Positions 34,831-64,000 of a stretch of 64,000 nt of DNA are shown here, one piece after another; position 1 is the first letter of the stretch; each line of letters opens with the position of its first letter. The notes beneath the pieces were generated by a model. It ran no database searches. It was not told the DNA's origin and saw only the letters and a list, made by a program, of their open reading frames with translations. The stretch is from Squalus acanthias (Eukaryota): contig CM059432.1 of NCBI GenBank assembly GCA_030390025.1, forward strand, positions 27,530,001-27,594,000. Direction: 5' to 3'. Made by a program: the position numbers and the translations under genes.

Positions 34831-35280
34831 GGGTACAATAGTGTAGTGGTTATGTTACTGGACTAGTAATCCAGAGGCCTGAATTAATAATCCAGAGAAC
34901 GTGGGTGCAAATCCCAACATGGTAGTTGGAGAAGTTAAAATCAGTTTAAAAAAAATCTAGAAATAATTTTTTTTTAAAGTTGGTATCAGTAGAGGTGACC
35001 ACCAAGCTGTCGAATGTCATTAAAAACTCAACTGGTTCACTAATGTTGTTTAGGGTAGGAAACCTGCTATCTTTACCCGGTCTGGTCGATATGTGACTCC
35101 AGTCCCACACCAACATGGTGGACTCTTAGCTGCCCTCTGAAGTGGCCGAGCAAGCCACTCAGTTGTGTCAAACCGCCACCAGCGGTTCAAGAAGGCCCAA
35201 CACCACCTTCTCAGGGCAATTAGGGATGGGCAATAAATGCTGGCCTTGCCAGCGTCTCAAGAATGAATAATAAAAAAAAA
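34831..35280 (+). mobile_element. Bipartite tRNA-headed SINE (LINE 5' head joined to LINE 3' tail)
   Basis: A-box-like TAGTGTAGTGG and B-box-like GGTGCAAATCCC. 34831-35176 aligns to rc(30398-30713); 35180-35280 aligns to the LINE 3' end and finishes in poly(A). Confidence 0.8.
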
Positions 35281-59191: not shown

Positions 59192-59399
59192 AATATCATT
59201 ACCGTCATCGAATCTCCCACCATCAACATTCTGGGGGTTACCATTGACCAGAAACTTAACTGGACCAACCACATAAATACTGTAGCTACAAGAGCAGGAC
59301 AGAAGCTGGATATTCTGTGGCGAGTGTCTCACTTCCTGACTCCCCAAATCCTTTCCACCATCTACAAGGCACAAGTAAGGAGTGTGATGGAATACTCTC

Positions 59400-59614
59400 T
59401 GTCATAAATCGCAAGTAACAACTCAGGAAGTACTACTGGGCGGCCAGCTGGGGCGCCGTCCAGGGAGTATAAATACTCCGGCATGGGCCCACCTTGGACA
59501 GAGACAATCTGGAAACAGGAAGCTAGTGACTGCTAACTAGACCTCCATGTTTTGTTACAAGTTGATTAAAGCCTTGCTTTATGTTCAAGTGCGTAGTGAG
59601 TCTTTATTACGTCA
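59400..59614 (+). repeat. 5' LTR (215 bp)
   Basis: Identical by eye to the 3' LTR; TATAAA at 59469-59474; ATTAAA at 59565-59570. Confidence 0.97.
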
Positions 59615-59714
59615 ATTTAATCAACTTGATATCGTCTCCACGCTTTGGGTGATTCGGAACAACCAGCTGCAACTCGAACCACAGAAGGGAACTTGGGCAA
59701 GAAACTGATCCATC

Positions 59715-62700
59715 ATGGAAAAACTCCTTAGACCCGCTCGTCTCGACCTGGACCCGAATGCACCTGCGGCAGCAAAGGTATGGAAGCATTGGTTTCGTAC
59801 CTTTAGCAACTTTCTTGAAGAATGTGGGGCGGATGTCCCTAATAAGTTACGAATGCTTATCAACTACGTGTCTCCTCATGTGTATGATTATATTGAGGAC
59901 TGTATAGACTATGACACTGCTATCGAAATCTTACAGCAGCTATATGTCAAGTCCCCAAATGAAATCTTTGCTCGACACCTACTGGCCACAACTCGGCAGC
60001 AGCCTGGGGAATCACTCGATGAATTTCTCCAGAAACTTCGCAGGCTCAGCAAGGATTGTAACCTTAAAGCAGTTTCAGCTGAACAGTATCAAGAGGAACT
60101 AATCCGCGATTCCTTTATCAATGGAATCGCGTCCCCTTTTATACGTCAGCGCCTGCTGGAAAATAAAACCCTCAATTTACGGGCTGCTTATGACCAGGCG
60201 TGTTCCTTGGACTTGGCCAAGAAAAATACAGACACTTATCTCCCACCACGTGCACGGGCGGCGGCTATCTCCTTTAATGAGTCTTTCGGTAGGTCTCGGG
60301 CAGATGCCCCCACTGATGTTGACCCTATTCTAACAGACGACGACCCTACCCTAGAGGCCTTCGCTGATGACGACCCCGTCCTAGCAGCATCCTGGCAATC
60401 AGGAAGAAAGTGTTTCTTTTGTGGAGGGGCGTGCCATCACAGAAAATTTTGCCCGGCTCGTAATGTGACCTGCAATCATTGCAGCAAGAAAGGACACTTT
60501 TCCAAGGTATGCCAGTCACGGGCCTCTGCTAACAAGAAAGGCCGCTCCTCTAAAGTATACCGGTCGAGAGCTCCTGTTAGCTTCACAGCTGCTATCTATG
60601 GAGCTGCTCCTCCCCCAAGAACTACTGTTAAGGCTACAGTTGCCGAAGGGAAAATTGCCCCTCCTCCCATCACGGCTGTTTTTCCCCAAAGTTTGTCCCA
60701 TGCAGCCACGAAGGTTTCAGTAAATGGGCACACTCTAAGCGCGCTAATCGACTCCTGCAGCTCTGACAGCTTCATTAGTAAGCAGGCTGTCAACAGGTTA
60801 AAACTGCACATTTATCCCTCGGACAGGGAGATTGCAATGGCTCTGACAACTCTGACCACCAATTCTTCTGGCTTCTGTCTGGTCAACCTCATCCTCAACG
60901 GCCGCACGTATCTCTCCACCCGGCTCGGAGTACTCGCAAACTTATGCAGCGATGTGCTTCTGGGACAGGACTTCCAGAAGCAGCACAAGAAGATCACTTT
61001 TGAGTTTGGAGGGTCAAGGCCGGAGCTTACCATTTCTAAGGTGCCATTTTGTGCACTCTCGGCGGCCTTACTCGGTGAACCCTCCCTGTTTGCCAATCTT
61101 CCCCCCCGCTGTAAACCCATAGCCACCAAATCGCGGCGCTTTAGCCAAGATGATCGAGCGTTTATTGAGGCGGAAATCTCTCGCCTTTTAGTCGACGGTA
61201 TTATCGAGCCATGTTCATCTCCCTGGCGGGCTCAGGTCGTCATCGTGAGGAATCCCTTAAAACAACATAAAAAACGTCTGTGTATCGATTATTCGCAGAC
61301 TATTAATCTATATACCGATCTGGATGCCTACCCGCTGCCACGCATAGATGACATGGTCAACAACCTTGCCAAATACAAGGTATTCTCGACCTTCGATTTA
61401 AAAAGCGCGTACCATCAGGTGCCACTGCAAGACTCCGACAAGAAGTATACAGCCTTTGAGGCCAATGGTCGGCTTTTCCAGTTTCGCCGCCTTCCATTCG
61501 GGGTCACCAATGGGGTGGCCGTCTTCCAACGGGCCATGGATGGCCTAGTCCGGCAAGAGAACTTGACGGATACCTTTCCGTATTTAGACAATATCACTAT
61601 TGCCGGCCATGATCAAAAGGAGCATGACGCCAATCTTCAGAGATTTTTTGACGTACTCCGCCGTCGCCACTTAACATTAAACGAATCCAAATCGGTGAAG
61701 TCGGTGCCATCGGTGAACATTCTTGGCTACTGGGTGGGCAACGGTGTTATTAAACCGGACCCAGAGCGACTTCGTCCACTTCAGGAGCTCCCTCCCCCGA
61801 CGAACCTTGGCTCTCTTCGTCGGGCACTTGGCATGTTTGCTTATTACGCAAAATGGATACCACACTTCTCCGATAAAATACAGCCCCTGCTCCATGCGAA
61901 GTCTTTTCCATTGGAAGCTACGGCTATTTCTGCCTTCAACCTCCTCAAACGACAGCTGGAGAAAGCCACGCTTCGCTCCATTGACGAAAATCTTCCTTTT
62001 GTGGTCGAATGCGATGCATCGGAGGTGGCGATCTCCACTACCTTGAATCAAGGTGGCCGACCCGTGGCATTCCTATCCAGAACCTTGCAGGGTAGCGAGC
62101 TCCATTACCCCCCCGTCGAGAAGGAGGCTACGGCCATCATCGAGGCTGTACGCCAATGGGGTCATTTTCTTGCTCGGCGTCATTTTACGCTTATAACTGA
62201 CCAGCGCTCTGCGGCCTTCATGTTGGATAACCGGAGGCGCACGAAAATCAAAAATAATAAAATTCAACTCTGGAGGATGGAGCTGGCTGCCTTTGGATAT
62301 ACTATCTGTTACCGACCCGGCAAACAGAACGTGGCCCCAGATACCTTCACACGGGCATTTTGCTCCTCAATGTCAACGTCGACTCTGGCGGATTTGCATA
62401 TGGACTTATGCCATCCTGGTGTGACCCGCATGTTGCACTTTGTGCGCTCCAAAAATCTACCATTTTCAACCGAGGACGTAAAGAAAACATGCTCCTCCTG
62501 TAGGATTTGTGCAGAATTGAAACCACAATTCTTTCGCCCATCAGATGGCTTACTCATACATGCAATGCAGCCTATGCAGAGGCTCAGCATAGACTTTAAA
62601 GGGTCATTGCCTTCGTCGACAAGGAACACCTACCTACTTACGATGGTGGTCGAGTATTCACGCTTTCCCTTCGCCTTCCCCTGCCCTAATATGCTTACCT

Positions 62701-63656
62701 CTACGGTAATTAAATGCCTCGATCAGGTCTTTCCCCTTTGCGGGACGGCCAATTTTATCCACACTGATCGGGGTCCCTCCTTTATGTCGAGTGAACTTAA
62801 AAGTTATCTCTCCCAACGGGGAATCGCCTCAAGTAGGACGACACCATATCACCCAATCGGTAACGGACAGGTTGAACGATACAATGCCATCATCTGGAAC
62901 GCTGTCCGTCTGGCGCTAAGGTCACGCAACCTGCCGGACCAGCAGTGGGAAACGGTCCTCCCCGACGCGTTACACTCTATCAGGTCTCTTCTCTCCACAT
63001 CTACTAATGTCACGCCTCATGAGCGATTCTTCAAATTCCGGCGTCGCTCTACACATGGGACGTCTCTACCGTCATGGTTGGTGGCTCCAGGCCCGGTACT
63101 ACTCCGGAGGTTCGTCCGGTCTGCCAAAAACGACCCTCTCGTTGACGAGGTGGAGTTAACGGAGGTAAACCCCACGTATGCGCACGTACGGTACCCTGAT
63201 GGCCGGGAGACCACCGTCTCGCTCCGAGATCTGGCTCCCTGCCCAACCGGTCACACGGGCCCGAATGATGAAGGATCCCCCGACAATGATATCAACACTC
63301 CGCACCCCTATGAAAATGACGCCCCGCCTGGGACATCGGGGGATCTGCCGGCAACGCTACCGGATCAACTCAGGGAGCTGGACGCTCCCCGTAGGATGGC
63401 CACCCGAAACCAGGACGCCGGACAATCTCCAGCCACGACCCGGGATGAGGCCAGCTCAGCACCTGTGGGGACCCGCACCCGGAGTCATGATATTCCCAGT
63501 CCTCCACAGGATGATCAAGATGACGCGGACTCTACTGACTTACCGGTACGGGCCAAGCGACCCAGGGACCAGGACACGGTCCGGGGAGACGTGCCTTCCA
63601 GTCACAAGCAGAGAGCTAAACGTCTGCGGCTATTTCTGGTCCGCCTAGTCCGTTAA
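59715..63656 (+). CDS. Gag-Pol polyprotein, 1313 aa
   Basis: Two CX2CX4HX4C knuckles; protease LIDSCSSDSFI; RT LCIDY..FDLKSAYHQ..LPFG..YLDNI; RNase H CDAS..EKEA..TDQ..APD; integrase HHCC plus D(IDFKG), D(TDRG), E(GQVER). Confidence 0.96.
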   Translation: MEKLLRPARLDLDPNAPAAAKVWKHWFRTFSNFLEECGADVPNKLRMLINYVSPHVYDYIEDCIDYDTAIEILQQLYVKSPNEIFARHLLATTRQQPGESLDEFLQKLRRLSKDCNLKAVSAEQYQEELIRDSFINGIASPFIRQRLLENKTLNLRAAYDQACSLDLAKKNTDTYLPPRARAAAISFNESFGRSRADAPTDVDPILTDDDPTLEAFADDDPVLAASWQSGRKCFFCGGACHHRKFCPARNVTCNHCSKKGHFSKVCQSRASANKKGRSSKVYRSRAPVSFTAAIYGAAPPPRTTVKATVAEGKIAPPPITAVFPQSLSHAATKVSVNGHTLSALIDSCSSDSFISKQAVNRLKLHIYPSDREIAMALTTLTTNSSGFCLVNLILNGRTYLSTRLGVLANLCSDVLLGQDFQKQHKKITFEFGGSRPELTISKVPFCALSAALLGEPSLFANLPPRCKPIATKSRRFSQDDRAFIEAEISRLLVDGIIEPCSSPWRAQVVIVRNPLKQHKKRLCIDYSQTINLYTDLDAYPLPRIDDMVNNLAKYKVFSTFDLKSAYHQVPLQDSDKKYTAFEANGRLFQFRRLPFGVTNGVAVFQRAMDGLVRQENLTDTFPYLDNITIAGHDQKEHDANLQRFFDVLRRRHLTLNESKSVKSVPSVNILGYWVGNGVIKPDPERLRPLQELPPPTNLGSLRRALGMFAYYAKWIPHFSDKIQPLLHAKSFPLEATAISAFNLLKRQLEKATLRSIDENLPFVVECDASEVAISTTLNQGGRPVAFLSRTLQGSELHYPPVEKEATAIIEAVRQWGHFLARRHFTLITDQRSAAFMLDNRRRTKIKNNKIQLWRMELAAFGYTICYRPGKQNVAPDTFTRAFCSSMSTSTLADLHMDLCHPGVTRMLHFVRSKNLPFSTEDVKKTCSSCRICAELKPQFFRPSDGLLIHAMQPMQRLSIDFKGSLPSSTRNTYLLTMVVEYSRFPFAFPCPNMLTSTVIKCLDQVFPLCGTANFIHTDRGPSFMSSELKSYLSQRGIASSRTTPYHPIGNGQVERYNAIIWNAVRLALRSRNLPDQQWETVLPDALHSIRSLLSTSTNVTPHERFFKFRRRSTHGTSLPSWLVAPGPVLLRRFVRSAKNDPLVDEVELTEVNPTYAHVRYPDGRETTVSLRDLAPCPTGHTGPNDEGSPDNDINTPHPYENDAPPGTSGDLPATLPDQLRELDAPRRMATRNQDAGQSPATTRDEASSAPVGTRTRSHDIPSPPQDDQDDADSTDLPVRAKRPRDQDTVRGDVPSSHKQRAKRLRLFLVRLVR

Positions 63657-63694
63657 AGGAAGACTGGACTTCCAAACCTTTTAGGGAGGAAGAA

Positions 63695-63909
63695 TGTCAT
63701 AAATCGCAAGTAACAACTCAGGAAGTACTACTGGGCGGCCAGCTGGGGCGCCGTCCAGGGAGTATAAATACTCCGGCATGGGCCCACCTTGGACAGAGAC
63801 AATCTGGAAACAGGAAGCTAGTGACTGCTAACTAGACCTCCATGTTTTGTTACAAGTTGATTAAAGCCTTGCTTTATGTTCAAGTGCGTAGTGAGTCTTT
63901 ATTACGTCA
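63695..63909 (+). repeat. 3' LTR (215 bp)
   Basis: Direct repeat of 59400-59614, preceded by the polypurine tract. Confidence 0.97.
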
Positions 63910-64000
63910 CTCTCCACTTGTCTGGATGAGTGCAGCTCCAACAACACTCAAGAAGCTCGACACCATCCAGGACAAAGCAGCCCGCTTGATTCGCACCCCA

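Follow-up and report, generated by a model that had tools for sequence, protein, structure and literature searches.

In the window (the whole 64,000-nucleotide stretch of Squalus acanthias DNA analysed here), an intact Ty3/gypsy element carries, one base beyond its 5' LTR, a putative primer-binding site that is complementary to a segment of the element's own LTR. The same pairing, with compensatory changes in the two arms and a fixed one-base register, recurs across a clade of animal elements that lack a chromodomain, and these elements probably prime reverse transcription with their own RNA rather than with a tRNA, as Tf1 and sushi elements do. An earlier note on this DNA had proposed self-priming from the letters of the window. 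That reading is partly supported: its core, that the 13-mer behaves as a primer-binding site for the element's own LTR segment, is borne out by clade-wide compensatory changes, a matched change in a subfamily, the fixed one-base register and the lack of space for a tRNA site, and the steps beyond this core are given below as predictions. If the reading is true, a whole further clade, spread over many animal phyla, works without a tRNA primer.

Structure of the element and pairing at its 5' LTR

The element occupies positions 59400-63909 of the window (4510 bp) and has one gag-pol frame; its features are collected in Table 1. LTRs of the form TG...CA, the target duplication, the polypurine tract, the order of the pol domains and a Ty3-related reverse transcriptase (RT) identify it as Ty3/gypsy (Metaviridae). 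Pfam matches place protease, RT, RNase H and integrase in that order along the frame, and the best solved relative of the protein is Ty3 Gag-Pol (7q5b; E = 1.5e-53). The earlier note had reported two CCHC knuckles, a YLDN motif and no visible chromodomain. All of these are seen in the reading frame and in Pfam, where the chromodomain is absent from the gag-pol protein of the window element at E <= 0.01; in precomputed Pfam lists, PF00385 is likewise found in none of the 120 homologues among the matches listed. In the C-terminal region (63400-63656) most relatives end in a conserved RRSxRxxKPPxRYG-like tail, of which the window family has only a trace, followed by about 50 extra residues rich in acidic and basic residues.

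Table 1. Positions of the element's features in the window
Feature	Position	Strand	Basis
Target-site duplication CTCTC, left copy	59395-59399	+	same 5 nt at 63910-63914
5' LTR, 215 nt, TG...CA	59400-59614	+	direct repeat, 100% identical with 63695-63909
TATAAA box	59468-59473	+	sequence; 90 nt upstream of 59558
Candidate self-primer segment in LTR	59558-59570	+	exact complement of 59616-59628; covariation
ATTAAA poly(A) signal, last six bases of primer segment	59565-59570	+	sequence
Rest of R plus U5, loop between both arms	59571-59614	+	sequence
Spacer A, one base, from LTR end to primer-binding site	59615	+	sequence
Putative primer-binding site complementary to the element's own LTR	59616-59628	+	exact complement; covariation
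Single gag-pol frame, 1313 aa	59715-63656	+	ORF and Pfam
Two CCHC knuckles in the gag-pol frame	60411-60452, 60471-60512	+	sequence
RT motif YLDN (residues 623-626 of the gag-pol frame)	61581-61592	+	sequence
Polypurine tract AGGGAGGAAGAA, adjoining the 3' LTR	63683-63694	+	sequence
3' LTR, 215 nt, second primer-segment copy at 63853-63865	63695-63909	+	repeat comparison
Target-site duplication CTCTC, right copy	63910-63914	+	sequence

The element lies within what is left of a LINE reverse-transcriptase frame. In contigs assembled from public runs, 59393-59396 is linked directly to 63909-63912. The 4515 nt passed over equal the length of the element (4510 nt) plus one 5-nt copy of the duplication, as would be expected if these contigs represent related LINE copies that lack the insertion. 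The contigs are Logan contigs of four runs, only tentatively taken as RNA. They also stop at 59585-59587, 30 nt short of the LTR end; this is a k-mer effect and is uninformative on transcript starts or ends. The flanks (59200-59399 and 63910-64000) are a very high-copy LINE remnant whose summed contig depth is hundreds of times that of the element. When the 5' LTR and leader were used as a query against the 3.7-Gb genome, 1178 candidates were returned; identity was 99-100% in each of the 40 that received a score. The family is very young and present in high copy in the S. acanthias genome, with at least 639 near-identical copies.

The 5' LTR ends ...CGTCA at 59614 and is followed by A59615 and then, at 59616-59628, by TTTAATCAACTTG, which matches the reverse complement of LTR bases 59558-59570 (CAAGTTGATTAAA) at every position. 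This complementarity, claimed in the earlier note, can be read directly in the sequence, as can the ATTAAA that the note had placed inside the LTR segment; its TATAAA, put at about 85 nt upstream of the segment, is found at a measured distance of 90 nt. The 13-mer is present three times in the window, at 59558 and 63853 on the plus strand (the latter in the 3' LTR) and at 59616 on the minus strand, and 100 dinucleotide shuffles of the window gave no match to it. No TGG-type tRNA site lies within 25 nt after the 5' LTR, again in agreement with the note, and without a TGG following the LTR the CCA end of a tRNA is unable to pair there. The predicted local RNA fold contains the 13-bp stem; its ordinary energy (z = -1.03, with 28 of 200 shuffles folding equally well or better) counts against the reading.

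Conservation and covariation of the two arms

A protein search with the element returned 1280 matches among 8000 scored candidates. The 120 matches listed are 55-84% identical from RT to integrase, and among them the clade is found in records labelled as shrimp (Palaemon), sea louse (Caligus), tunicate (Clavelina), mussel (Mytilus), whipworm (Trichuris) and catshark (Scyliorhinus). DNA of relatives was obtained from two sources. Metagenome contigs gave 593 matched stretches, of which 548 code for a relative; 80 were retained. Among contigs filed as bacterial metagenome-assembled genomes (MAGs), 26 of 67 code for one. A viral contig collection gave 15 stretches that matched the pattern, none of which encoded a relative. 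The 26 contigs deposited as bacterial MAGs (L111-L136) encode animal-type gypsy elements; it appears that DNA of host animals ended up in symbiont or environmental MAGs during binning.

Starts of gag were located by tblastn in 29 cases, 27 of them with at least 100 nt upstream. A stem was counted where the second arm starts one base after the CA and pairs with a segment 18-85 nt upstream. By this measure, at least 11 of 12 Watson-Crick pairs are formed in 22 of the 27 relatives, compared with a mean of 0.05 loci in shuffled regions, and at least 10 of 12 in 26 of the 27 (shuffled mean, 0.71 loci). Among these 26 loci, L086 is truncated at its 5' end and probably qualifies by chance, and L079 is called one register off; a decayed copy, L098, has no stem of this form. 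An unconstrained search for stems also yields chance matches (L086 and L098), and only the constrained count is used here. The pairing feature is located elsewhere on circularly permuted contigs in L035, L060 and L112, and in L037 the region is cut off by the end of the contig. Those relatives that have both LTRs on one contig share the same layout with different arm sequences.

The 27 instances reduce to 23 distinct arm pairs. The two arms of one element pair at 11.5 of 12 positions, as compared with 8.1 of 12 for arms taken from different elements. When the 23 distinct relatives are aligned with flush ends, 93.5% of the 322 cells hold standard pairs, and 11 of the 14 pairs change on both sides (62 cells across the 23 distinct elements); these are the compensatory changes that the earlier note had suggested looking for in the LTR segment and the 13-mer. 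None of 500 shuffles matched the observed values for cells paired, two-sided cells, further pair types or covariation score, and one of the 500 reached 11 pairs. Sliding the partner by 1-3 columns left at most 49% paired. The pairing is under selection. The covariation proves that the arms pair, or that one is templated by the other, and does not in itself prove priming. That the complementarity arose by chance in an AT-rich LTR is of negligible probability: the arm is indeed AT-rich and the fold energy unexceptional, but the 13-mer was matched in 0 of 100 window shuffles, 22 of 27 relatives pair where 0.05 would be expected, and 0 of 500 column shuffles reach the covariation.

The register of the two arms is fixed. 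All 27 instances have AAA as the last bases of the first arm, [G/A]C[C/T] directly behind it, CA at the end of the LTR and a spacer of exactly 1 nt, which is A in 25 of the 27. The second arm begins with TTT, or with TCT in one decayed copy, and the loop between the arms is 24-68 nt in the relatives. The gag ATG is found 2-45 nt after the second arm, which it overlaps in L064, so that a separate tRNA site would have no space. There is also a fair degree of conservation in the arm sequence itself, with a consensus near AGTTGATTAAA, and ATTAAA or AATAAA forms the end of the first arm in 12 of the 23 distinct elements; some of this conservation may thus be due to polyadenylation. The arm has no canonical poly(A) signal at its end in 11 of the 23, and two of the relatives, L032 and L033, have a canonical signal in the loop.

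Since the sequence of the site varies among relatives, a conserved host RNA cannot be its partner, and it is very unlikely that a host tRNA, a tRNA half or another small RNA with the same 13-mer is the primer. Some elements do use tRNA halves (PMC6317226), and the core of the arm is conserved across phyla. However, the site starts with TTTAA, which is unable to pair with a CCA end, and its changes, both among relatives and in a subfamily within the genome, are always matched by the element's own LTR; the covariation seen counts as a refutation of a host-RNA primer. The comparison of the 13-mer with host tRNAs that the earlier note had proposed covered a small part of the host set. No complement longer than 6 nt to 59615-59664 was found among 32 tRNA genes of 3 anticodon types (Lys-UUU, Cys-GCA and Thr-AGU), a very partial sample that comprises 31 genes from 30 Rfam-search loci, mostly of one tandem family, and a tRNA-Thr in the window. 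The latter, called by ARAGORN as tRNA-Thr(AGT) at 34834-34925, is 92 nt in length, long enough for an intron or a tRNA-derived repeat.

A matched change is also seen within the S. acanthias genome. A T-to-C variant at 59563 was first hinted at by contigs from public runs, and the LTR segment with C at this position occurs 159 times in the genome. Twelve variant loci were examined, of which two are 5' LTRs with internal sequence, and both carry the matching G in the primer site. Genome-wide, where the LTR segment and the primer site are on one molecule, the combination is U-A in 639 cases, C-G in 23, U.G in 10 and C.A in 1, and a sister subfamily has a matched C-G where the main family has U-A. 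In the C-G form the paired position is a CpG, so that two CpG transitions connect the states via a wobble pair. The subfamily's 4-nt longer loop is found in 9 of the 10 U.G copies. At least 4 U.G copies have T in the 5' LTR and C in the 3' LTR, which lies some 4.1-4.4 kb downstream on the same strand; as the C is kept in the 3' LTR, these copies look like CpG decay after insertion. Because the variant copies are related, they represent one further compensatory event, not hundreds. The series C-G, U.G and U-A offers a concrete case in which to test whether the primer templates the primer site.

Predicted mechanism and possible roles of the duplex

With no space for another site, and with a partner that covaries, self-priming as in Tf1 is the best reading of these observations. 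In the genomic RNA, 59558-59570 would pair with 59616-59628, and the remainder of R together with U5 would be looped out. A cut after the conserved AAA (A59570) and before [G/A]C[C/T], presumably made by the element's RNase H as in Tf1, would leave a 3'-OH, which RT would extend over A59615 and U5 back to the cut (59571). Either copy of the segment, 5' or 3', could donate the primer, in cis or in trans. An exact one-base register would suit a primer site, since the U5 end of the cDNA is set by whichever base is copied first. The strong-stop DNA, predicted at about 45 nt, would transfer via some 17 nt of R between the cut and the likely poly(A) site. Poly(A) sites typically lie 10-30 nt after the signal, and the likely site here would be the CA at 59586-59587, which is followed by a GT-rich stretch. 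Plus-strand synthesis would then copy the primer into the new primer-binding site, so that a single change in the LTR segment could rewrite its partner. Such rewriting of the primer site from the primer would fit both the two-sided changes and the in-genome series.

Right after the proposed cut, a small hairpin of the form [G/A]CCT...AGG[T/C] is possible in many relatives, and in the window as CTTG/CAAG at 59573-59589. In a crude shuffled-loop test this hairpin was not significant, with at least 4 bp in 14 of 22 cases and a shuffled mean of 10.6.

The position of the TATAAA box predicts a transcript start near 59500, which would put the primer segment about 58 nt further downstream. TATA-like words are found at -90 relative to the segment in the window, at -24 in L060 and at -50 in L112, or are absent in relatives. 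With the TATA box 90 nt upstream, the segment is probably not formed by the first bases of the RNA here, unlike in Tf1. In that element the complementary bases are the start of the mRNA, the first 11 of which pair with the primer-binding site, and the cut by RNase H between bases 11 and 12 was shown experimentally (PMC7175516). An internal primer poses a problem for plus-strand transfer: to make plus-strand strong-stop DNA end where the primer site ends, there would have to be either another cut or removal by RNase H in time.

Conceivably, though we consider it improbable, the duplex of LTR and leader has a purely regulatory or structural role in the RNA, for instance as a mask of the 5' poly(A) signal or as a packaging or dimerisation stem, and priming occurs by other means. 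Retroviruses have U5-leader stems, and HIV-1 has a poly(A) hairpin. As in the window element, LTR-derived and leader RNA pair there near the primer site, and the 5' poly(A) signal is occluded, as it may be in the window element; those structures, however, flank a tRNA primer site, whereas the pairing in the window occupies the primer site itself. The poly(A) signals ending the first arm in 12 of the 23 distinct elements would suit a regulatory duplex, and a partner just outside the LTR would be a natural means of distinguishing the 5' copy from the 3' one, leaving the 3' signal open. Covariation alone cannot separate regulation from priming. The register speaks differently, since occlusion needs no exact 1-nt distance to the CA and yet all 27 instances have it, and there is no alternative primer site, with no TGG after the LTR and gag starting 2-45 nt after the arm. 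Nor does masking account for the 11 of 23 elements without a canonical signal at the arm end, or for L032 and L033 with the signal in the loop. Both functions can coexist, and a regulatory duplex is a rival to self-priming only where priming is denied. In about half of the clade the primer has the poly(A) signal as its 3' end, so that the duplex may also hide the signal at the 5' end of the RNA, and poly(A) masking may well be a second function.

Self-priming and masking can be combined with the position of the segment in a single proposal, which as a whole is possible but somewhat doubtful. A chromodomain-less animal gypsy clade would prime with an internal piece of R whose 3' end is the poly(A) signal; one LTR-leader duplex of 10-19 bp would mask the 5' signal and, after a cut at AAA/RCY, give the primer; and the primer site would be rewritten in each cycle. 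The arrangement would have arisen separately from that of Tf1/sushi, or would be an ancestral hairpin priming that has survived. It would release the clade from dependence on host tRNAs and from control by tRNA fragments, which may aid its spread across phyla.

Relation to known elements and place in the gypsy tree

To our knowledge, self-priming has been shown experimentally only in fission-yeast elements of the Tf1 type, and is otherwise predicted for a few fungal, plant and vertebrate groups of chromoviruses or copia elements. The window element is best filed as a large animal addition to the known self-priming LTR retrotransposons. Tf1/sushi elements of vertebrates are chromoviruses with a chromodomain, whereas the window element has none at its integrase C-terminus and its clade lacks the domain; the likeness lies in self-priming, probable for the window element, in gypsy elements of vertebrates, and the two are set apart here on the basis of this domain. 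With respect to Tf1, the clade differs in its animal hosts, in the missing chromodomain, in the YLDN form of motif C seen in the window element and in having the poly(A) signal as the primer 3' end in 12 of 23 distinct elements.

The literature describes self-priming for the Tf1/sushi group of fungi and vertebrates, the latter comprising sushi-ichi and its relatives (Butler et al. 2001, as cited in PMC6317226 and PMC4600332), and proposes it for Tcn1 and TAR copia (PMC6317226, PMC6934838, PMC4600332, PMC3601003). Hairpin priming has been proposed as the ancestral state of LTR elements (PMC3601003). As in Tf1 and Tf2 of Schizosaccharomyces pombe and Tj1 of S. japonicus, the window element has no tRNA site, and the site after its 5' LTR is complementary to upstream, LTR-derived RNA of its own, an arrangement in which the rest of R-U5 is looped out (PMC7175516, PMC4600332). 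For Tcn1 of mosses and fungi and for the TAR copia elements of plants (Houba, Osr-1), self-priming is likewise predicted from complementarity between LTR and primer-binding site alone; unlike the window clade, these belong to other host kingdoms, Tcn1 grouping with Tf1/sushi and TAR falling in another superfamily (PMC6317226). No description of self-priming in a chromodomain-less animal clade was found among the papers listed from the searchable literature, outside which several older key papers lie.

Primer sites for tRNAs are reported to be targeted by small RNAs that derive from the 3' ends of tRNAs (PMC7472051); if the reading holds, such RNAs would find no target in these elements. Annotation pipelines that seek tRNA-complementary sites will miss or mislabel primer sites of this kind.

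The C-clade (SURL-like) Mag elements, including Steamer, resemble the window element in several respects: they are about 4.5-5 kb long, their LTRs measure 150-220 bp, gag and pol share one frame with two zinc knuckles, and they are distributed over many aquatic phyla (PMC8905726, PMC11046912). In Steamer and the C-clade branches near it, the LTR is directly followed by a 12-nt site for tRNA-Leu, TGGTGTCAGAAG (PMC8905726). The window element has no TGGTGTCAGAAG in that position, and assignment of the family to Mag C or to Steamer-like elements was rejected for their use of this site. L118, which has a Steamer-type site (TGGTGTCAGAAG) and stands in for named SURL or Steamer sequences, has a Pol identity of 32%, is found on the other side of the deepest split in a midpoint-rooted tree, and is parted from the clade by a split with 100% support.

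This tree is a quick maximum-likelihood tree of 34 RT-integrase rows, rooted at the midpoint and built from the window element's relatives and outgroup rows without named reference elements. It separates a clade of 24 rows from the other 10 rows with 100% support. Within the clade, 14 rows have DNA, and all 14 have the self-type site; the remaining 10 are proteins without DNA. The earliest branch of the self-type clade is L112 (39% identical), on a long branch whose place is unsure. Among the other 10 rows, 4 are assessable, and all 4, more distant gypsy elements from the same MAG contigs, have ordinary TGG-type sites (L118, L120, L123 and L125). In L120, L123 and L125 the primer site begins TGGGGGCTCG..., which we take to be of tRNA-Pro type. 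These three and L129 form a distant gypsy group in which the polyprotein starts with a MYND zinc finger. Matches to Chromo (PF00385) in the genome, 16 from 44 candidates, were tried as proxies for chromoviruses; the 12 loci examined were without integrase homology and appear host-gene-like. No Chromo domain was found in 13 distant gypsy ORFs from MAG contigs.

The window element, L038 and L104 have an identical 13-nt arm, with Pol identities to the window element of 52% for L038 and 49% for L104. Judged from the Pol identities of 55-84% and the shared 13-nt arm, horizontal transfer between aquatic phyla is possible.

Motif C of the RT is YLDN in place of YxDD, the Asn aligning with the second Asp of the Ty3 YLDD. 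Of the 23 aligned relatives with a residue at this position, 19 have the xxDN form. YLDD is found in the early-branching L112 and L035 and in all 10 outgroup gypsy ORFs, which indicates that YLDN arose inside the clade. The clade is nevertheless very prolific in this genome.
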